Source: Escherichia coli (GTDB lineage Bacteria; Pseudomonadota; Gammaproteobacteria; Enterobacterales; Enterobacteriaceae). Taken from it: a stretch of DNA of 64,000 bases. Position numbers and translations under genes: made by a program. Positions 2,144-54,469 of this stretch are shown here, piece after piece. The notes under the pieces were generated by a model. That model searched no databases, was not told the origin of the DNA, and worked only from the letters and a program-made list of their open reading frames with translations. The stretch lies in NCBI RefSeq assembly GCF_003790525.1, contig NZ_CP033635.1; one strand, written 5' to 3'. How positions within the stretch are numbered: position 1 is the first letter of the stretch; every line of letters begins with the position of its first letter.

Positions 2144-3166
2144 TTAAACCTCTGTAGAGCGGTTTCCGCTGGGTGAGTTATGCCTGTTGAAAAAATCAAC
2201 GATAGCGTGGAGCGCGACTGAGCGCATTGCGTCCTTTTCAAAAAGGATCTCATGGTACGCACCTTTAATTACCAACGGCCGTCCTCCTTCGACAGGATGG
2301 CCCGCAGCGGTGCGTAGTTCACAAAAACGGTCGTGCATGCGGTTATCCACCACGCGTTCCTCTTCAGCTTGTAAGAGAAGCGTTGGCGTGGCGTCATCAC
2401 CCGCACCGGCTAACACCTGTTCGCCAGCCAGAATACTTTCGCGTACCCAATGGTAGGTCGGCCCACCGACGCGAATCGTTGGGTCATCAGCATAAAAGCG
2501 TAAGTTACGTCGATATCGCTGTCTGCTGTGGGTCAGTACGTTGATAGCAAACGGCAACGCGCGCCAGCGCCCGGTGCCTATTGCATAGCCATCACGGAAA
2601 CGTGGATGCGCTTCGGCCCAGTTGAGGATCTGCCGTGCCATAAATGACGGCATACGAATCACGATCCCAAACATTGGCGCAGTTAGCGCAATGGCGTCAC
2701 ATACACCTGGATGGCGTTGCAGAAATAATGTGGAGATCGCACCGCCCATTGAATGTGCCAGTATATAGCGTTTACGCCACGGACCGGGCTGAACCTCCTG
2801 CTGCCAGAATGCCGCCAGATCATCAACATAATCATTAAAGCGATTAACATGCCCGAGATGCGGATCGGCTAACAGGCGACCGGAACGTCCCTGCCCGCGA
2901 TGGTCGATGATTAAGACATCAAACCCCAAATGGAACAGGTCATAGGCCAGTTCCGCATATTTTACGTAGCTCTCAATACGCCCCGGGCAGATGACTACCA
3001 CCCGGTCATGGTGCTGTGCGCGAAAACGGACAAAGCGCACCGGAATGTCATCCACACCAGTAAATTCTGCTTCATCACGCTGACGCCAGAAATCAGTCAG
3101 CGGTCCCATGGTAAAAGCAGCAAACGCGTTTTCTCTTGTTTCCCAGTCTTTTTGCTGCTGAAACAT
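2144..3166 (-). CDS. pldB: Lysophospholipase L2
   Basis: 340-aa ORF with alpha/beta-hydrolase motif HSMGG; synteny. Confidence 0.9.
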   Translation of the reverse strand: MFQQQKDWETRENAFAAFTMGPLTDFWRQRDEAEFTGVDDIPVRFVRFRAQHHDRVVVICPGRIESYVKYAELAYDLFHLGFDVLIIDHRGQGRSGRLLADPHLGHVNRFNDYVDDLAAFWQQEVQPGPWRKRYILAHSMGGAISTLFLQRHPGVCDAIALTAPMFGIVIRMPSFMARQILNWAEAHPRFRDGYAIGTGRWRALPFAINVLTHSRQRYRRNLRFYADDPTIRVGGPTYHWVRESILAGEQVLAGAGDDATPTLLLQAEEERVVDNRMHDRFCELRTAAGHPVEGGRPLVIKGAYHEILFEKDAMRSVALHAIVDFFNRHNSPSGNRSTEV

Positions 3167-3276: not shown

Positions 3277-3897
3277 ATGACCTTAGAATGGTGGTTTGCC
3301 TACCTGCTGACATCGATCATTTTAAGCCTGTCGCCAGGCTCTGGCGCAATCAACACCATGACCACCTCGCTCAACCACGGTTATCGCGGCGCGGTGGCGT
3401 CTATTGCTGGGCTTCAGACCGGACTGGCGATTCATATTGTGCTGGTTGGCGTGGGGTTGGGGACGCTATTTTCCCGCTCAGTGATTGCGTTTGAAGTGTT
3501 GAAGTGGGCAGGCGCAGCTTACTTGATTTGGCTGGGAATACAGCAATGGCGCGCCGCTGGTGCAATTGACCTTAAATCGCCAGCCTCTACTCAATCGCGC
3601 CGACATTTGTTCCAGCGCGCAGTTTTTGTGAATCTTACCAATCCCAAAAGTATTGTGTTTCTGGCGGCGCTATTTCCGCAATTCATCATGCCGCAGCAGC
3701 CACAACTGATGCAGTATATCGTGCTCGGCGTCACCACTATTGTGGTCGATATTATTGTGATGATCGGTTACGCCACCCTTGCTCAACGGATTGCTCTATG
3801 GATTAAAGGACCAAAGCAGATGAAGGCGCTGAATAAGATTTTCGGCTCGTTGTTTATGCTGGTGGGAGCGCTGTTAGCATCGGCGAGGCATGCGTGA
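3277..3897 (+). CDS. rhtB: LysE/RhtB-family homoserine/homoserine-lactone exporter
   Basis: 206-aa membrane protein [27 protein letters not shown]; divergent from pldB. Confidence 0.9.
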
Positions 3898-3905
3898 AAA
3901 ATAAT

Positions 3906-3935
3906 GTCGGATGCGGCGTAAACGCCTTATCCGAC
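3906..3935. repeat. REP (repetitive extragenic palindrome) between the convergent rhtB and rhtC
   Basis: Palindromic tcggatgcggcgtaaacgccttatccga read directly in the intergenic spacer. Confidence 0.6.
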
Positions 3936-3958
3936 TTACTCTGATGACGCGTCTGGCA

Positions 3959-4579
3959 TCAACGCGAAATAATCAAATGAATGCCAAATCCGGCAAATAA
4001 CGCCCCGGCAAAACCATCAATCCACTTCGCCAGACGTTGATAACCACGGCGCATTTGCGGCAGGGCAAACAGGCTGGCAACGACGGTAAACCACGCCAGT
4101 GTTTCGATAATAATCAACGCGAAAATGCCCCAGCGCTCAGTGGTGCCGACGTTATCGCCGACAAACAGCGAGAATACCGAACCAAAGTAGATAATCGCTT
4201 TCGGATTGGCGAGATTGGTCAGTAAGCCTTTCAGGAAACTGCGCCCGCTTTTTGCCAGCTCAACCTGTGGTGCAGGCGCAGAAACCGCCTCTTTTTTCAG
4301 TGCACCGCGTAGCATCTGGTAACCCATCCAGCAGAGATACAGGCCACCGCCCACCATAATCAGCGTATGCAGCCAGGCCATTTTTTCGATAATCAAATGT
4401 AGGCCAAGCAACGCAATCCCAGCCCAAACCATTACGCCGCAGGTAATGCCCAGCACGCCCATCATCGCTTCTTTACGGGAACGACTGACAGCGGTCTGAG
4501 AGACAAAAAAGAAATCGGGACCGGGGCTCATAAGCGCCACAATGTGCACCATGGCGACGGTGAGGAATAACATCAACAT
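3959..4579 (-). CDS. rhtC: LysE/RhtB-family threonine exporter
   Basis: 206-aa membrane protein MLMLFLTVAMVHIVALMSPGPDFFF; paralogous to rhtB. Confidence 0.9.
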   Translation of the reverse strand: MLMLFLTVAMVHIVALMSPGPDFFFVSQTAVSRSRKEAMMGVLGITCGVMVWAGIALLGLHLIIEKMAWLHTLIMVGGGLYLCWMGYQMLRGALKKEAVSAPAPQVELAKSGRSFLKGLLTNLANPKAIIYFGSVFSLFVGDNVGTTERWGIFALIIIETLAWFTVVASLFALPQMRRGYQRLAKWIDGFAGALFAGFGIHLIISR

Positions 4580-4642
4580 ACATTAGACTCGCGGGGGAAA
4601 CGTTTACGGAGTCTTCATCCTGGCACTTTTTTATGCTGCTGA

Positions 4643-6478
4643 CTACTCTTCGTCGTCACCATCGACATGCGCGCGGATAAGCGCCATAAACGGTTTACCA
4701 AAGCGTTCCAGCTTGCGCATCCCAACGCCGTTAACGCTGAGCATTTCGCTGGCGGTGATCGGCATCTGTTCAGCCATCTCAATCAAGGTTGCGTCGTTAA
4801 ACACCACGTACGGCGGGACATTGCTTTCATCGGCAATCGATTTACGCAGTTTGCGTAATTTGGCGAACAGTTTGCGATCATAGTTGCCGCCGAAGGATTT
4901 CTGCATCGCTTTCGGTTTGAGCGCCACGATACGCGGCACGGCAAGTTGCAAAGAGGATTCGCCGCGCAGCACCGGACGCGCAGCCTCTGTCAGTTGTAGG
5001 GCAGAATGCTGGGCAATATTTTGCGTCACCAGGCCGAGGTGAATCAGCTGGCGGATCACGCTCACCCAATGTTCATGGCTTTTATCACGGCCCATGCCAT
5101 AGACTTTCAGTTTGTCATGACCATAGTCGCGGATACGCTGATTATTAGCACCGCGAATAACTTCCACCACATAGCCCATCCCAAACCGCTGATTCACACG
5201 ACCAATGGTGGAAAGGGCAATCTGAGCATCGGTTGAACCATCGTATTGTTTCGGCGGATCGAGGCAGATATCGCAGTTCCCGCACGGCTCCTGCCGCCCT
5301 TCGCCAAAGTAGTTCAGCAGCACCAGACGACGGCAAGTTTGCGCTTCGGCAAACGCGCCCATCGCATTGAGTTTATGGCGCTCGATATCCTGCAATTGCC
5401 CCTGCGGCTTCTCTTCCAGACAACGGCGTAGCCACGCCATATCGGCCGGATCGTAAAACAGCATCGCTTCCGCGGGCAGGCCATCACGCCCGGCGCGACC
5501 GGTTTCCTGATAATAGGATTCGATATTGCGCGGAATATCAAAGTGGACCACGAAGCGGACGTTAGGCTTGTTGATGCCCATGCCAAACGCCACGGTCGCC
5601 ACCACAATTTGCAGGTCATCGCGCTGAAATTTTTCCTGCACGTCGGCGCGGACATTATTTTCCAGCCCGGCATGATAGGCCGCCGCGCTAATACCCTTGC
5701 TTTGCAGGCGCGCAGCGGTGTCTTCTACTTTCGCCCGGCTGTTGCAGTAGATAATGCCGGACTTACCGCGCTGTTCCTGCACGTAGCGCATCAACTGATC
5801 GAGCGGTTTGAACTTCTCCATCAGCATGTAGCGAATATTCGGACGATCAAAACTGCTGATTTGAATCAGCGGATCGTTCAGCCCCAGCAGGCGCACGATA
5901 TCCTGGCGCGTGGTGTCATCGGCTGTGGCAGTCAGCGCCATAAACGGCAGCGTCGGAAAACGCTGACGCAGCTGACCGAGGGCAGCGTATTCCGGGCGGA
6001 AATCGTGACCCCATTGGGAGATACAGTGCGCTTCATCAACGGCTAATAACACCGGATTCCAGTGCGCCAGATGCTCAAGAAAGTTATCCAGCATCAGGCG
6101 TTCCGGCGCGATATAAAGCAGGCGGATTTGCCCGGTGCGACAGCCTGTCATCACTTCAAGTTGCTGCTCGCGGGTTTGCGTCGAGTTAAGGCACACCGCC
6201 GCCACGCCGTTGGCTTGCAGTTGATCCACCTGATCTTTCATCAACGAAATCAGCGGTGAAACAACCACGGTAAGGCCGTTTAGCAATAAGGCAGGGATTT
6301 GATAGCAAAGGGATTTTCCGCCACCAGTGGGCATGACAACGAGGCAATCGCGGCCGGAAAGCACAGTGTCGATAATTTCTTCCTGGCCGGGGCGAAACTG
6401 TTGGTAGCCAAAGGTTTCTTGTAAAACCTGTTTAGCCCCGGACTCCAGATTCAACACTTCCGCCTGCGCCACATTCAC
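4643..6478 (-). CDS. recQ: ATP-dependent DNA helicase RecQ
   Basis: 611-aa ORF with DEAH box ([15 protein letters not shown]), Zn-binding cysteines and an HRDC-type C-terminus; the true start may be the GTG two codons in (6472). Confidence 0.93.
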
Positions 6479-7630: not shown

Positions 7631-8098
7631 ATGTCTGCCGTACTGACCGCTGAACAAGCCCTGAAATTAGTGGGTGAGATGTTTGTTTATCACATGCCGT
7701 TTAACCGCGCATTGGGGATGGAACTGGAGCGTTACGAAAAAGAGTTCGCACAGCTGGCCTTTAAAAATCAGCCAATGATGGTGGGTAACTGGGCGCAAAG
7801 CATTTTGCACGGCGGGGTCATTGCGTCGGCGCTGGATGTCGCCGCCGGTCTGGTGTGCGTGGGAAGTACCTTAACCCGCCACGAAACCATCAGTGAAGAT
7901 GAACTACGCCAGCGGCTATCGCGGATGGGGACCATTGATCTTCGCGTCGATTATCTGCGCCCAGGCAGAGGCGAGCGTTTTACTGCTACCAGTAGCCTGT
8001 TACGTGCAGGCAATAAAGTCGCCGTCGCCCGCGTTGAATTACACAATGAAGAACAGCTTTATATTGCCAGTGCCACCGCCACCTATATGGTAGGTTGA
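7631..8098 (+). CDS. yigI: 4HBT/PaaI-family acyl-CoA thioesterase YigI
   Basis: ORF 7613..8098 trimmed to [18 protein letters not shown] (155 aa). Confidence 0.8.
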
Positions 8099-8149
8099 AG
8101 ACATAAAAGCAGGTAAACTGCTGTTACCAATTAAAAATGAGTATTCCCG

Positions 8150-9040
8150 ATGGATGCAAAACAAACGCGGCAGGGCGTATTACTCGCTCTTGCCGCTTAT
8201 TTTATTTGGGGTATTGCGCCAGCGTACTTCAAGCTGATTTACTACGTGCCCGCCGATGAGATCCTGACGCATCGCGTGATCTGGTCGTTTTTCTTTATGG
8301 TGGTGCTGATGAGCATTTGCCGCCAGTGGTCCTATTTAAAAACGCTGATTCAGACGCCACAGAAAATTTTTATGCTGGCAGTCTCTGCCGTGCTGATTGG
8401 TGGCAACTGGCTACTGTTTATCTGGGCGGTGAACAATCACCATATGCTGGAAGCGAGCCTTGGTTACTTTATTAACCCACTGGTGAACATTGTGCTGGGG
8501 ATGATTTTCCTCGGCGAGCGATTCCGCCGGATGCAATGGCTGGCGGTGATTCTGGCGATATGTGGCGTGTTGGTTCAGTTGTGGACTTTTGGTTCACTGC
8601 CGATTATCGCGCTGGGGCTGGCGTTTAGTTTTGCCTTCTACGGCCTGGTACGCAAGAAGATTGCTGTTGAAGCGCAAACCGGCATGTTAATCGAAACTAT
8701 GTGGTTGCTGCCCGTGGCGGCGATTTACCTGTTTGCTATTGCCGACAGCTCAACCAGCCATATGGGGCAAAACCCGATGTCGCTGAATTTACTGCTGATC
8801 GCCGCCGGTATTGTCACTACCGTACCGCTGTTGTGTTTTACTGCGGCTGCGACACGCCTGCGTCTCTCAACGTTAGGCTTTTTTCAGTACATTGGCCCGA
8901 CGCTGATGTTCCTGCTGGCTGTGACGTTTTATGGTGAAAAACCGGGTGCCGATAAGATGGTAACCTTCGCCTTTATTTGGGTGGCGCTGGCAATTTTTGT
9001 GATGGATGCGATTTATACGCAGCGTAGAACGTCCAAATAA
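8150..9040 (+). CDS. rarD: EamA/DMT-family transporter RarD
   Basis: 296-aa polytopic membrane protein MDAKQTRQGVLLALAAYFIWGIAP. Confidence 0.9.
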   Translation: MDAKQTRQGVLLALAAYFIWGIAPAYFKLIYYVPADEILTHRVIWSFFFMVVLMSICRQWSYLKTLIQTPQKIFMLAVSAVLIGGNWLLFIWAVNNHHMLEASLGYFINPLVNIVLGMIFLGERFRRMQWLAVILAICGVLVQLWTFGSLPIIALGLAFSFAFYGLVRKKIAVEAQTGMLIETMWLLPVAAIYLFAIADSSTSHMGQNPMSLNLLLIAAGIVTTVPLLCFTAAATRLRLSTLGFFQYIGPTLMFLLAVTFYGEKPGADKMVTFAFIWVALAIFVMDAIYTQRRTSK

Positions 9041-9349
9041 AAAATAAATATATTCTGAAAAAATATGCCGACTCTTGCATGAGAGTGGGCATATTGCCAT
9101 GCTGACAGGAGACTCACATAAGGAAAGGCAGAATTTCCAGACGTCGTTGTATATTTTCATTTGCTTTAATAAATTTCATTTTTGGTAAATTCAGCATTAT
9201 GTTATTAGCGATGAGCAAGACCAATCATTAACCAAGTTCTCTTCAGAATGTAATGAAAAATGTGAAGTGCATTTCTTTTTTAAAATTTTTTACCCTATTA
9301 TTTCTTATCAAATTAACATTGCCCTTAATTATAAGAAAGGAGAATATAA

Positions 9350-10198
9350 ATGAACAACATATTAGGCTCATCAATTAATATGCCCTGTACACTTTTCGAA
9401 ACTATTACTTTATTCGATGATTTTTCTGCTGATGATATGCAGTATGGGGATATGGAAGAACAAGATTTTCTCTCACTCGGCTTAAGCGACATCTCTGCAA
9501 AAGTTGATCCTTACCGCCTCATTAAATACCATTTTCCTGGGCCGAATTCTACTTATGGTGCTTTTAGTGTTCCAACTTCTGGAACAAAAATATCACAAAG
9601 TGAATGTATTGATATTTTATTTGCAGAAATGAAAGATCTGGCAAAAATGTTTTCCTTTTTTGGACAATACAAAACACTCATCCAGGATCTGATTGATCAT
9701 TTTAGATATGGAAATGGCAACAGTTTCCATAGCCAGGAATTGAACTTATCTTTTCATGAACGAATAAACAAATATGATTATAATAGCCCAATACGTGTAA
9801 TCAAAGAATGTATCGAAAATGATATTTCTTCAACACCTACGATAGGATACCGGCCTCTTCTCCTACAAAAGATTAAGACCGAATTACTTTCATCAAGACT
9901 AAATAAATTCAATGATTTTAAAGATAATTTTAATGGCATGGGAATCAGCATTCATGATATCTCAGCTCAAAAAATATCTCTTTTAAATTTTCAAAAATAT
10001 CCTATGGGCTGGAGCGCTACCATTCATTTCATAGCACAAGACCACTTTGGTTTGGATGTGACTGATATAAAAAACAAGATTTACAACAAGTATAGATTTT
10101 TTCGCATATGGTTCTTTTTACAACGGCATAAAGACTTTGCTTTCAAACCTTTTTTCACCAATTTTAACACTATCGAAAGAATCGAAAATTATCTATGA
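9350..10198 (+). CDS. Hypothetical soluble protein (282 aa), first gene of the AT-rich cassette
   Basis: Long ORF in a visibly AT-rich region, preceded by Shine-Dalgarno aaggag (9337..9342) about 8 nt before the ATG; no signal peptide or TM segment; codons strongly A/T-biased. Family unknown (tentative recollection: DUF3289-like length and composition). Confidence 0.75.
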   Translation: MNNILGSSINMPCTLFETITLFDDFSADDMQYGDMEEQDFLSLGLSDISAKVDPYRLIKYHFPGPNSTYGAFSVPTSGTKISQSECIDILFAEMKDLAKMFSFFGQYKTLIQDLIDHFRYGNGNSFHSQELNLSFHERINKYDYNSPIRVIKECIENDISSTPTIGYRPLLLQKIKTELLSSRLNKFNDFKDNFNGMGISIHDISAQKISLLNFQKYPMGWSATIHFIAQDHFGLDVTDIKNKIYNKYRFFRIWFFLQRHKDFAFKPFFTNFNTIERIENYL

Positions 10199-10692
10199 AA
10201 AGAAAACTCCAGAAAATTATATTATATTTATTTCTTCTATGCTGCATCTATAATTTATGGACATTGCGTCCTGTACAGATTTTGTATACATACTCTGATG
10301 CTGGCAATTCAGTCTTTCTGGTCGTTGATCATCTGCCATGGACTGACAGCGATAAAATAAATTGGTATCTGAAGCATCAGAATGAAATTAAAAATCAACA
10401 CCCCCTACCAGAAGGTAGTTGGCATACCTGGTATGTTATTGATATCGGTAATGGCTTCACTGACTATAAAAAATATATCGAAGGGCCGTATGAAGATCTC
10501 TACTGTTTCCCGACGATTAAGAGCAATGATAATTGCATCGTAAAAAACTATTTAATGGTTATTAATGAATATCCTTACCGTAATACTCATTTTTTTATTG
10601 CTGATAACAATGAGTATCAACTAACCCAGGAAAATAAGATAGAGCGAGTGTTCAACCCGCATGACTTTGAAAAAGACAATTTTCAGCAATAA
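10195..10692 (+). CDS. Hypothetical small membrane-anchored protein (165 aa), second gene of the AT-rich cassette
   Basis: Start overlaps the upstream stop in ATGA (10195..10198); N-terminus MKRKLQK followed by a ~17-residue hydrophobic segment IILYLFLLCCIYNLWTL, then a hydrophilic domain. Family unknown (tentative recollection: DUF943-like). Confidence 0.7.
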   Translation: MKRKLQKIILYLFLLCCIYNLWTLRPVQILYTYSDAGNSVFLVVDHLPWTDSDKINWYLKHQNEIKNQHPLPEGSWHTWYVIDIGNGFTDYKKYIEGPYEDLYCFPTIKSNDNCIVKNYLMVINEYPYRNTHFFIADNNEYQLTQENKIERVFNPHDFEKDNFQQ

Positions 10693-10720
10693 GCCGGATA
10701 AAGAACAATCTTTACCCGGC
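10693..10720. terminator. Stem-loop between the convergent cassette gene B and corA (possible bidirectional terminator)
   Basis: gccggataaag / aacaat / ctttacccggc, an 11-bp stem with one mismatch, immediately after the gene B stop and just before the corA stop. Confidence 0.45.
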
Positions 10721-10727
10721 ATTTATA

Positions 10728-11678
10728 TTACAACCAGTTCTTCCGCTTAAAGTACAGATACGGTGCCAGGCCCGCGAGGATCATAAAGATAATCGCGCCA
10801 GGGTAGCCGAAGCTCCACTTCAGTTCCGGCATAAACTCAAAGTTCATCCCGTAGCTGGAAGCGACCAGCGTCGGTGGCAGGAACACCACGGATACCACCG
10901 AGAAGATTTTGATGATGCGGTTCTGCTCGATATTGATAAAGCCCATCGCCGCCTGCATCAGGAAGTTCACCTTCTGGAACAGGGATTCGTTATGCGGCAG
11001 CAGGGATTCGATATCTCGCAGGATTTCACGCGCCTGCTCCAGTTGCCCACCCGGTAAGCGTGCTTTACGTACCAGGAAGTTGAGCGCGCGCTGGGTATCC
11101 ATCAGACACAGGCGAACTTTCCAGCCGATATCTTCCAGTTCCGCCAGCGTGGAGAGCGCCTCGTCGTACTCATCGCCCTGATGCCCTTCCATAATTACCC
11201 GGCTCAACTGCTCCAGGTCACTGTAGATATTTTCAATTTCATCCGCCAACTGTTCGATTTTGGTTTCGAACAGATCCAGCAACAGCTCGTAGGCGTTACC
11301 GTCCACCATCGACTGGCTACGGGCACGCATACGATACAGACGAAAAGCGGGCAGTTCACGCTCACGCAGAGTAAACAGACGACCATCACGAATGGTAAAT
11401 GCCACAGTGGAGTTACCGGCGTGATCTTCCGCATCTTCAAAGAAGAAGAAGGAGTGAATATGCAGGCCGTCATCGTCTTCAAAGAAACGTGCCGATGCTT
11501 CGATGTCTTCCAGTTCCGGGCGGGTTGCCAGGCTCTGGCCAAGTTCAGATTGTACGCGCAGTCGCTCGTCGTCGTCCGGTTCGACAAGATCAATCCATAC
11601 TGCATTTACAAGGGGTTGTGACTCTTCGACTTCCAGCCGGGTCAGTCGGTTATTTTCCAGTTGAAATGCGCTCAGCAT
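10728..11678 (-). CDS. corA: Magnesium/cobalt transporter CorA
   Basis: ORF 10728..11693 trimmed to [15 protein letters not shown] (316 aa); GMNF motif and C-terminal TM helices present. Confidence 0.93.
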
Positions 11679-12894: not shown

Positions 12895-13797
12895 ATGAAA
12901 AAAAGGCTCGCAACGTTATTTTTATTAACGTGTCTGGGATCATCATCCGCCTATGCGGATAACGCTTTGATTTTACAAACTGATTTTAGCCTGAAAGATG
13001 GTGCCGTCTCGGCGATGAAAGGGGTCGCATTCGGCGTTGACCATAATCTTAAAATCTTTGATTTAACACACGAAATTCCACCGTATAACATCTGGGAAGG
13101 CGCTTATCGCCTGTATCAGACTGCCAGTTACTGGCCGCAAGGTTCGGTGTTTGTTAGCGTGGTCGATCCGGGCGTAGGCACTGACCGTAAATCGGTAGTG
13201 CTGAAAACCAAAAACGGTCAATACTTCGTTTCACCAGATAACGGTACGCTCACTTTGGTGGCACAAACTCTGGGTATTGATAGCGTCCGAGAAATCGACG
13301 AAAAAGCTAACCGCCTGAAAGGTTCTGAAAAGTCATATACCTTCCACGGTCGTGACGTGTATGCCTACACCGGTGCGCGTCTGGCTTCCGGGGCGATTAC
13401 GTTCGAACAGGTGGGGCCAGAGCTTCCTGCAAAAGTTGTCGAACTTTCTTATCAGAAAGCAAAAGCAACAAAAGGTGAAGTGAAGGGCAATATCCCGATT
13501 CTCGATATTCAGTACGGCAACGTCTGGAGCAATATCAGCGACGAGTTGCTGAATCAGGCAGGAATCAAACTCAACGACACGTTGTGTGTGACCATTTCCG
13601 AAGGTTCCCAGCAAAAATACGCAGGGAAAATGCCATATGTCGCAAGCTTCGGCGATGTGCCGGAAGGCCAGCCGATGGTGTATCTGAACAGCTTATTGAA
13701 TGTTTCCGTGGCGCTGAATATGGATAATTTTGCGCAGAAACATCAGGTTGCGTCTGGTGCTGACTGGAATATTGATGTGAAGAAGTGCGCTAAGTAA
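12895..13797 (+). CDS. SAM hydroxide adenosyltransferase (DUF62; fluorinase/chlorinase/SAM-hydrolase) family protein with N-terminal signal peptide
   Basis: 300-aa ORF with signal peptide MKKRLATLFLLTCLGSSSAYA and family-type motifs LILQTDFSLKDGAVSAMKGV, VFVSVVDPGVGT, YFVSPDNGTLT and DIQYGNVWSNI. Confidence 0.8.
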   Translation: MKKRLATLFLLTCLGSSSAYADNALILQTDFSLKDGAVSAMKGVAFGVDHNLKIFDLTHEIPPYNIWEGAYRLYQTASYWPQGSVFVSVVDPGVGTDRKSVVLKTKNGQYFVSPDNGTLTLVAQTLGIDSVREIDEKANRLKGSEKSYTFHGRDVYAYTGARLASGAITFEQVGPELPAKVVELSYQKAKATKGEVKGNIPILDIQYGNVWSNISDELLNQAGIKLNDTLCVTISEGSQQKYAGKMPYVASFGDVPEGQPMVYLNSLLNVSVALNMDNFAQKHQVASGADWNIDVKKCAK

Positions 13798-46270: not shown

Positions 46271-46309
46271 ATATAAAAGCAAAACGCCACGTAAACACGT
46301 GGCGTTTTT
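46271..46309 (-). terminator. Rho-independent terminator downstream of rho
   Basis: Hairpin aacgccacgt-aaac-acgtggcgtt flanked by T-runs on both strands. Confidence 0.65.
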
Positions 46310-54424: not shown

Positions 54425-54428
54425 CAGC

Positions 54429-54453
54429 AAGGCCTTCTCCGGGAGAAGGCCTT
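54429..54453. other. Stem-loop between the convergent ppiC and ilvC
   Basis: aaggccttct-ccggg-agaaggcctt perfect 10-bp stem; no clear T-run on either side. Confidence 0.4.
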
Positions 54454-54469
54454 GAACTCTGAATCGCAC

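Follow-up and report, generated by a model that had tools for sequence, protein, structure and literature searches.

In Escherichia coli, mRNAs whose transcription is terminated by Rho end just past stable stem-loops that lack a U-tract, and these stem-loops protect the mRNA against 3' exonucleases (Dar and Sorek 2018, PMC6061677). Proteins of the DUF3289 family are toxic in the E. coli periplasm, have a colicin M-like structure and are neutralised by DUF943 proteins (Geller et al. 2024, PMC11148199). The yigG-yigF genes of K-12 have been described as a promoter island and as an extended protein occupancy domain with H-NS-repressed intragenic promoters (PMC3661553, PMC7229825, bioRxiv 10.1101/2020.01.29.924811). 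The rarD-corA locus analysed here shares features with all of these.

Within the window (the whole stretch of DNA analysed, 64,000 nucleotides), the local gene order is recQ(-), pldA(-), yigI(+), rarD(+), gene A(+), gene B(+) and corA(-), and E. coli SMS-3-5 and many more E. coli chromosomes match the region at 100% identity. Like the published DUF3289/DUF943 pairs (PMC11148199), genes A and B have matches to the two Pfam families that span their full length, and follow the toxin-then-immunity order with stop and start overlapping, here by 4 nt. Unlike them, the pair in the window is an orphan at rarD-corA, away from any T6SS genes in the window; the published work is silent on the upstream region. 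By analogy, we regard gene A as a colicin-M-like candidate T6SS effector and gene B as its putative cognate immunity gene. The K-12 promoter island sits at the same chromosomal site and is similarly about 30% GC, horizontally variable and rich in weak promoter-like signals on both strands, the difference being that the window carries the toxin-immunity pair in place of yigG-yigF. Overall, the explanation that we consider probable, with moderate confidence, is that the spacer upstream of gene A combines a replacement scar, the 3'-end hairpin of a Rho-terminated rarD mRNA and upstream DNA borne by the cassette.

Composition and parts of the spacer

The spacer from the rarD stop to the gene A start (9041-9349) measures 309 bp and has a GC content of 30.1%, compared to 51% for rarD and 53% for corA, and long A/T tracts are found in it at 9041-9054, 9165-9176 and 9276-9292. 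A preliminary description made from the same DNA had called it a long, AT-rich leader with long A/T tracts, and in length, composition and tracts it was right. The low GC actually spans 9041-10692 (1.65 kb) and runs on through both cassette genes (33–34% GC), so that the spacer is the first part of a 1.65-kb island. This island stands at 27–34% GC against about 51–53%, is variably present among strains, and is closed by a hairpin between gene B and corA that resembles a minus-strand corA terminator.

We aligned the spacer with K-12-type, CD306-type, O157-type and other Escherichia loci, which divided it into three parts (Table 1). To judge from these alignments, gene replacement at the rarD-corA hotspot left it as a scar in three parts; it is not a purpose-built leader. 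The first part ends in what was formerly the yigG ribosome-binding region (AAGG). A 38-bp deletion at 9123/9124 took the yigG start codon together with codons 1–9, and the 60 letters that follow are, by alignment and translation, a dead yigG fragment. The third part is 84% identical to the DNA upstream of the O157-type cassette, a value similar to those of gene A (88%) and gene B (92%) at the same locus, and therefore travels with the cassette. This amounts to an annotation correction, in which an apparent regulatory leader becomes a recombination scar joined to the probable 3'-end hairpin of the upstream gene's mRNA.

Table 1. Features of the rarD-corA locus in window coordinates.
Feature	Position	Strand	Basis or remark
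rarD CDS, EamA-family transporter, stop TAA 9038-9040	8150..9040	+	ORF list, RefSeq annotation of SMS-3-5
Part 1: rarD 3'UTR common to yigG-yigF-type (K-12-like) E. coli	9041..9123	+	alignment (near-)identical up to 9123
A6 run immediately 5' of the hairpin	9058..9063	+	U6 just 3' of the hairpin on the minus strand
Imperfect palindrome / RNA stem-loop	9062..9095	+	extra U9076·G9081 wobble on the plus strand, loop GCAU
Inferred steady-state rarD mRNA 3' end	9094..9103, dominant 9098	+	mapped from K-12 4003230
Part 2: yigG remnant, codons 10–29, KGRISRRRCIFSFALINFIF	9124..9183	+	alignments and translation vs K-12 YigG
Junction zone: yigG homology (to 9184) overlapping O157-type cassette-upstream homology (from 9168)	9168..9184	+	BLAST ranges, alignments
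Part 3: cassette-borne 5' region, 27% GC	9185..9349	+	Shine-Dalgarno AAGGAG at 9337-9342
Gene A, DUF3289 / YPO3983 family	9350..10198	+	Pfam PF11692, E = 8e-83
Gene B, DUF943 membrane protein	10195..10692	+	Pfam PF06092, E = 8e-28
Hairpin gene B/corA	10693..10720	.	terminator scan and scoring

Apart from the rarD hairpin, direct or inverted repeats in 8900-10900 amounted to short AT-rich chance matches. A mini-ORF, ATGAGCAAGACCAATCATTAA (MSKTNH*), at 9211-9231 is identical at 21 of 21 positions in the O157-type upstream region, its surroundings being about 84% identical; it lies in the same frame as the yigG remnant and is without an obvious Shine-Dalgarno sequence. On the minus strand, an ATG ORF of 95 codons (8873-9160) runs antisense across the yigG remnant, the hairpin and the 3' end of rarD; it does not figure in the RefSeq annotation and is probably spurious.

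Occupants of the rarD-corA gap

Among 5426 complete E. coli genomes, the hairpin segment (an 86-nt query, 9038-9123) was found in 3924 and the full mosaic leader in 930, and a cassette of either type in about half (2625). In some 3000 E. coli genomes the hairpin is followed by yigG-yigF in place of the cassette, and the cassette loci of the O157 type and of Salmonella lack it. We extended the comparison across genera with 80 rarD loci taken from species-representative genomes. Most Enterobacteriaceae have rarD and corA next to each other in convergent orientation, 45–95 bp apart, with unrelated hairpins or REP-like elements between them. The yigG-yigF genes occupy the gap in Escherichia, Superficieibacter and Intestinirhabdus, while Salmonella enterica subsp. 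arizonae and diarizonae have a DUF3289-DUF943 pair (62% amino-acid identity) there. At the surveyed loci the hairpin occurs only together with yigG-yigF, in Escherichia species and in Superficieibacter electus, which places it at the left end of the older island; being older than the cassette, it cannot be a cassette-specific operator. The site thus has three or more alternative occupants. These results show that insertions have repeatedly entered the rarD-corA spacer in Enterobacteriaceae; the alternative low-GC islands of E. coli are yigG-yigF or a colicin-M-like toxin-immunity pair.

The O157-type locus has a different left boundary. In O157:H7 the 3' end of rarD differs and is without the hairpin, and the cassette-borne upstream DNA borders on a second, 147-bp copy of the corA 3' end; in strain ECP17-46 this copy (locus 2354-2500) includes the GMN motif and lies directly to the left of the cassette-upstream DNA. 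Such an arrangement suggests that the O157-type cassette came with a donor corA, by illegitimate recombination inside the resident corA. Two further peculiarities of the O157-type locus are an additional hypothetical gene on the minus strand and, following rarD, some 600 bp of DNA very rich in A and T.

Several other loci show partial or additional contents. In E. whittamii, yigG-yigF is accompanied by an orphan DUF943 gene (locus 4352-4855) after the yigF terminator, preceded by just the last 14 nt of a DUF3289 gene, so that an immunity gene has been kept without its toxin. In Salmonella enterica subsp. diarizonae the DUF3289 homologue (locus 3599-4440) was recovered as two tblastn segments, covering residues 1–162 and 167–281, and is possibly a disrupted toxin gene beside an intact DUF943 gene. 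Five loci (Pluralibacter, Citrobacter sp., Enterobacter sp. and others) have different DNA of about 1.8 kb in the rarD-corA gap, opening with a conserved GCTTTGCCGG…CCGGCAAAGC hairpin, and add further occupants of the hotspot. Two independent rearrangement junctions fall in the loop of the rarD hairpin. In E. coli ZH142 an IS1 is inserted there (locus ~2541/2542, equivalent to window 9081/9082) and yigG has also been removed; in O157:H7 TR01 it is a variant of the left boundary of the O157-type island (locus 3040/3041, window ~9077/9078), a junction that may be an assembly issue given the NN at 3029-3030 in the record. Between yigE and uvrD, at 12895-13797 of the window, there is a gene whose product belongs to the SAM hydrolase / SAM-dependent halogenase family; K-12 has no gene in that place, which makes this another variable spot near the spacer.

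The hairpin and the 3' end of the rarD mRNA

The palindrome, atatgccgactct / tgcatg / agagtgggcatat, lies at 9063-9094 and has 13-nt arms with a single G·G mismatch (9070·9087); it can be extended to arms of 14 nt (9062-9075 and 9082-9095). It is unlikely to have arisen by chance. The 64-kb window has three hairpins whose arms are 13 nt long with one mismatch or none and whose loop measures 3–10 nt, against a mean of about 0.3 in first-order Markov shuffles of the whole window, and one appeared in 0.6% of 3000 shuffles of the 309-bp spacer (P≈0.006). The other two in the window are at 46280-46309 and 54427-54455, the former with an A-run 5' and a T-run 3', resembling a bidirectional terminator. 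As plus-strand RNA, which begins to fold 22 nt past the rarD stop, the palindrome reaches -20 kcal/mol (z = -4.0), and as minus-strand RNA -15.7 kcal/mol (z = -2.9). Its plus-strand tail, GCCAUGCUGAC, has a longest U-run of 2. The preliminary description thus holds both for the palindrome itself, which is real and rare in shuffles, and for the missing T-run after it on the plus strand, by which it is not a canonical intrinsic terminator on that strand.

We compared seven hairpin variants, four of them E. coli alleles and the others from E. whittamii, E. albertii and Superficieibacter. The pair 9071-9086 appears among them as A-U, G-C, U-A and G-U, i.e. it covaries, and at the mismatched position 9070·9087 four of the seven have a pair (U·G, C-G or U-A). 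Over all variants the paired cells make up 93% on the plus strand and 88% on the minus strand, in comparison to 38–59% in slid-register controls. These seven related sequences are suggestive of a stem whose pairing is kept through compensatory and wobble changes. The A6 run, that is, the minus-strand U6, is also kept in all seven, Superficieibacter included.

What the hairpin does in the rarD-sense RNA can be approached through K-12, which carries an identical one. A 3' terminus labelled 'rarD Primary' is listed on the minus strand of MG1655 at 4003225-4003234, with 4003230 dominant, in TRS Supplementary Data 3 (PMC10687069). That source gives the same hairpin as the predicted fold at 4003230 (-20 kcal/mol, longest U-run 2), ranks the terminus 1544 and reports adjusted p values of 1, 4e-5 and 2e-11 in its three libraries, significant in two of the three. 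We transferred the position to the window through the rarD stop (4003288 = 9040), after using the thrL attenuator from that table to confirm how its coordinates are counted; the position falls 3 nt past the stem. For K-12 4003161(-), Adams et al. (PMC7815308) describe a region of Rho termination that is sensitive to bicyclomycin, with a Rho score of 4.0 and p = 4.6e-11. This region, a coarse one derived from 800-nt windows, lies within the 5' part of yigG, 69 nt downstream of the rarD 3' end, where the sequence past 9123 differs between the window and K-12. The curated Term-seq lists of the same authors contain no 3' end at the hairpin on either strand, and the TERMITe and SMRT-Cappable-seq supplements have no entry for this site; a strong Term-seq end is reported at the yigF terminator, 4002383 (PMC7815308).

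From these K-12 data the hairpin is most likely the 3'-terminal stem-loop of a Rho-terminated rarD mRNA. It resembles the stem-loops of Dar and Sorek (PMC6061677) in being stable, placed just past the stop codon and without a U-rich tail, and in having, in K-12, a steady-state 3' end a few nucleotides past the stem and a Rho-dependent termination region just downstream. Four features would agree with that class (its stability, the absence of a U-tract and, going by K-12, the mapped 3' end and probably the Rho region close by), and it departs from the class in one, the C-rich rut-like sequence downstream: C-rich, G-poor stretches were not found in 9096-9195 (C 17, G 19), nor was a C>G bias over 9096-9349 (C 38, G 38). 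It further differs from the published stem-loops in its conserved A-run, which is terminator-like on the other strand. In the preliminary description the palindrome was not an obvious rarD terminator; the part of this that concerns the U-tract stands, yet the primary rarD 3' end in K-12 lies right behind the hairpin.

The sequence of events that we propose would be as follows. Part 1 would be a rarD 3'UTR inherited from the earlier occupant, the yigG-yigF island, which the toxin-immunity pair replaced. In rarD-sense RNA, RNA polymerase would pass the hairpin, since there is no U-tract, and transcription would be halted a short distance downstream, largely by Rho; 3'-to-5' exonucleases would then presumably trim the RNA back to the stem-loop, which would fix and protect the rarD mRNA 3' end at about 9098. 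This would at the same time limit read-through into whichever island lies downstream. Part 3 would have entered with the DUF3289/DUF943 pair, bringing its ribosome-binding site and probably a weak or silenced cassette promoter. We infer that the K-12 3' end and Rho region hold in the window's strain too. Against this account, the in vivo data are all from K-12, with no cassette strain among them, and the A6 run is invariant, which a plus-strand role does not need and which points to a role on the minus strand.

Other roles for the hairpin and expression of the cassette

Since the A6 run directly precedes the hairpin, minus-strand RNA would carry the stem and then directly UUUUUU. The hairpin could therefore be a minus-strand intrinsic terminator that insulates rarD from antisense transcription, coming from spurious promoters in the AT-rich island or from corA read-through, and a plus-strand role may coexist with this one. 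The terminator-shape score is -6 on this strand versus -60 on the plus strand, the U-run is the one kept in every variant, promoter-like minus-strand sites occur in the leader and gene A (e.g. TTGTTC-18-TATAAT, with its -10 at 9333-9328), and the allelic island of K-12 is known for dense spurious promoters. On the other hand, no opposite-strand 3' end near the hairpin is among the entries listed in two K-12 sets, where antisense expression may be low; corA read-through is in K-12 already halted by Rho inside the yigF antisense; the minus-strand stem is the weaker one, with C·C and C·A mismatches and fewer pairs kept; and no annotated minus-strand gene feeds the hairpin. We consider this role rather unlikely.

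A general class of intrinsic terminators, bidirectional or convergent, that lie between convergent genes was reportedly described by Ju et al. in 2019. The Klebsiella rarD-corA hairpin AAAAAAGGAGCCGAAGCUCCUUUUUUU is one example, and the rarD hairpin resembles these in being intergenic and in having an A-tract on one flank that is a U-tract on the opposite strand. Unlike them, it is U-rich on one flank only, which would make it at best a one-way terminator of the minus strand, and the genes around it are no longer convergent.

Termination at the hairpin could also be Rho-independent but non-canonical, with a core stem GCC-G-ACUCUU / GAGAGU-G-GGC followed by the U-poor AUAUUGCC and release at about 9098. 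The stability and conservation of the hairpin would suit this, as would the K-12 3' end, which lies 8 nt past the GC-core stem, the usual distance in intrinsic termination. However, the 8-nt tract has 3 U with a longest run of 2, scoring was strongly negative (T-score 0.15, discriminant -60), the terminator scan made no call, bicyclomycin raises downstream transcription at the K-12 locus, and the strong operon Term-seq end at the yigF terminator indicates that much transcription passes the hairpin. We find such release quite unlikely.

The preliminary description gave the spacer as a leader that could hold a promoter, an operator or a small RNA, and took the palindrome and the A/T tracts for the kind of sequence that H-NS or a dedicated regulator binds. 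It is highly improbable that the palindrome controls a cassette promoter, be it as an operator bound by a protein or as a nucleation site for H-NS. Dyad symmetry, AT-rich surroundings and the probable binding of H-NS to the island speak for it, as does the overlap of the top plus-strand promoter-matrix matches with the right arm (TTGCAT-17-CATGCT and TTGCCA-17-CATAAG). Yet the palindrome exists without the cassette in the roughly 3000 genomes mentioned above and is absent from two kinds of cassette locus, the O157-type and the Salmonella one. It stands to the rarD/yigG side of the junction, and 255 bp with a dead gene fragment separate it from the gene A start downstream; its variable positions change with pairing preserved and show no fixed half-site sequence; its GC-rich core is unlike H-NS sites; and a regulator gene is absent from the locus, whose only genes are rarD, DUF3289, DUF943 and corA. 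As a regulatory element of the cassette the palindrome finds no support, and it is no place to search for the cassette operator. The small RNA fared no better: an Rfam scan of 8000-11000 (E ≤ 5) returned sub-threshold chance matches of eukaryotic or viral kind alone and no known RNA family, the K-12 sets list no opposite-strand 3' end, and the minus strand shows no RNA structure beyond the hairpin. A structured 5'UTR was dismissed as well, the cassette leader RNA being less structured than shuffles (z = +2.2).

Promoter prediction gave no convincing sigma-70 cassette promoter either. Consensus and matrix scans of the plus strand (9041-9349) found none above threshold, and the best matrix matches are weak, with none conserved between the two cassette types (9100-9349). 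The right-hand spacer does belong to the cassette, as the identity to the O157-type upstream region indicates, and is the natural place for a cassette promoter. Because this DNA moves with the cassette and rarD read-through is implausible in O157:H7, the cassette presumably has its own promoter within 9185-9349. Two other candidates were discarded. In the alignment of the E. coli and Salmonella cassette upstream regions a short TGTGAAG block alone is shared (blastn found no upstream homology), which we judged too weak for a regulatory site; and the intragenic yigG promoter of Warman et al. maps to the part of yigG deleted in the window and is sense-oriented.

Alternatively, the cassette might lack a promoter of its own and be expressed solely by rarD read-through across the U-tract-less hairpin, which seems to us rather unlikely. 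The failure to find a convincing sigma-70 promoter in 9100-9349 agrees with it, all genes from yigI to gene B are co-directional, and the strong K-12 3' end at the yigF terminator indicates that some transcripts traverse the whole island. But in K-12 a 3' end maps to the hairpin and a region of Rho termination follows closely, the approximately 250 nt of untranslated RNA from the hairpin to gene A should favour Rho, and the 165 bp of upstream DNA travel with the cassette, the O157-type copy being located behind a convergent gene and a corA fragment.

We also put forward, as a speculative and quite doubtful proposal, that the hairpin is a strand-asymmetric boundary element, anchoring the rarD mRNA 3' end on one strand and acting on the other as an intrinsic terminator that shields rarD from antisense transcription out of whichever AT-rich foreign island fills the site, and that a cruciform-prone palindrome may draw rearrangement, as the IS1 and O157-type junctions in its loop would suggest. 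A boundary role and a rearrangement-prone loop would explain the survival of the hairpin through the swap from yigG-yigF to the cassette. Should the insulator reading prove right, the locus would offer a small example of the protection of a core gene from transcription out of foreign DNA.

By analogy with the K-12 island, the island in the window (30–34% GC) is plausibly an H-NS target and silenced. The H-NS motif consensus is TCGATAAATT, and sites like it are enriched here, 11 of the 75 matches in the window falling within 9166-10481.
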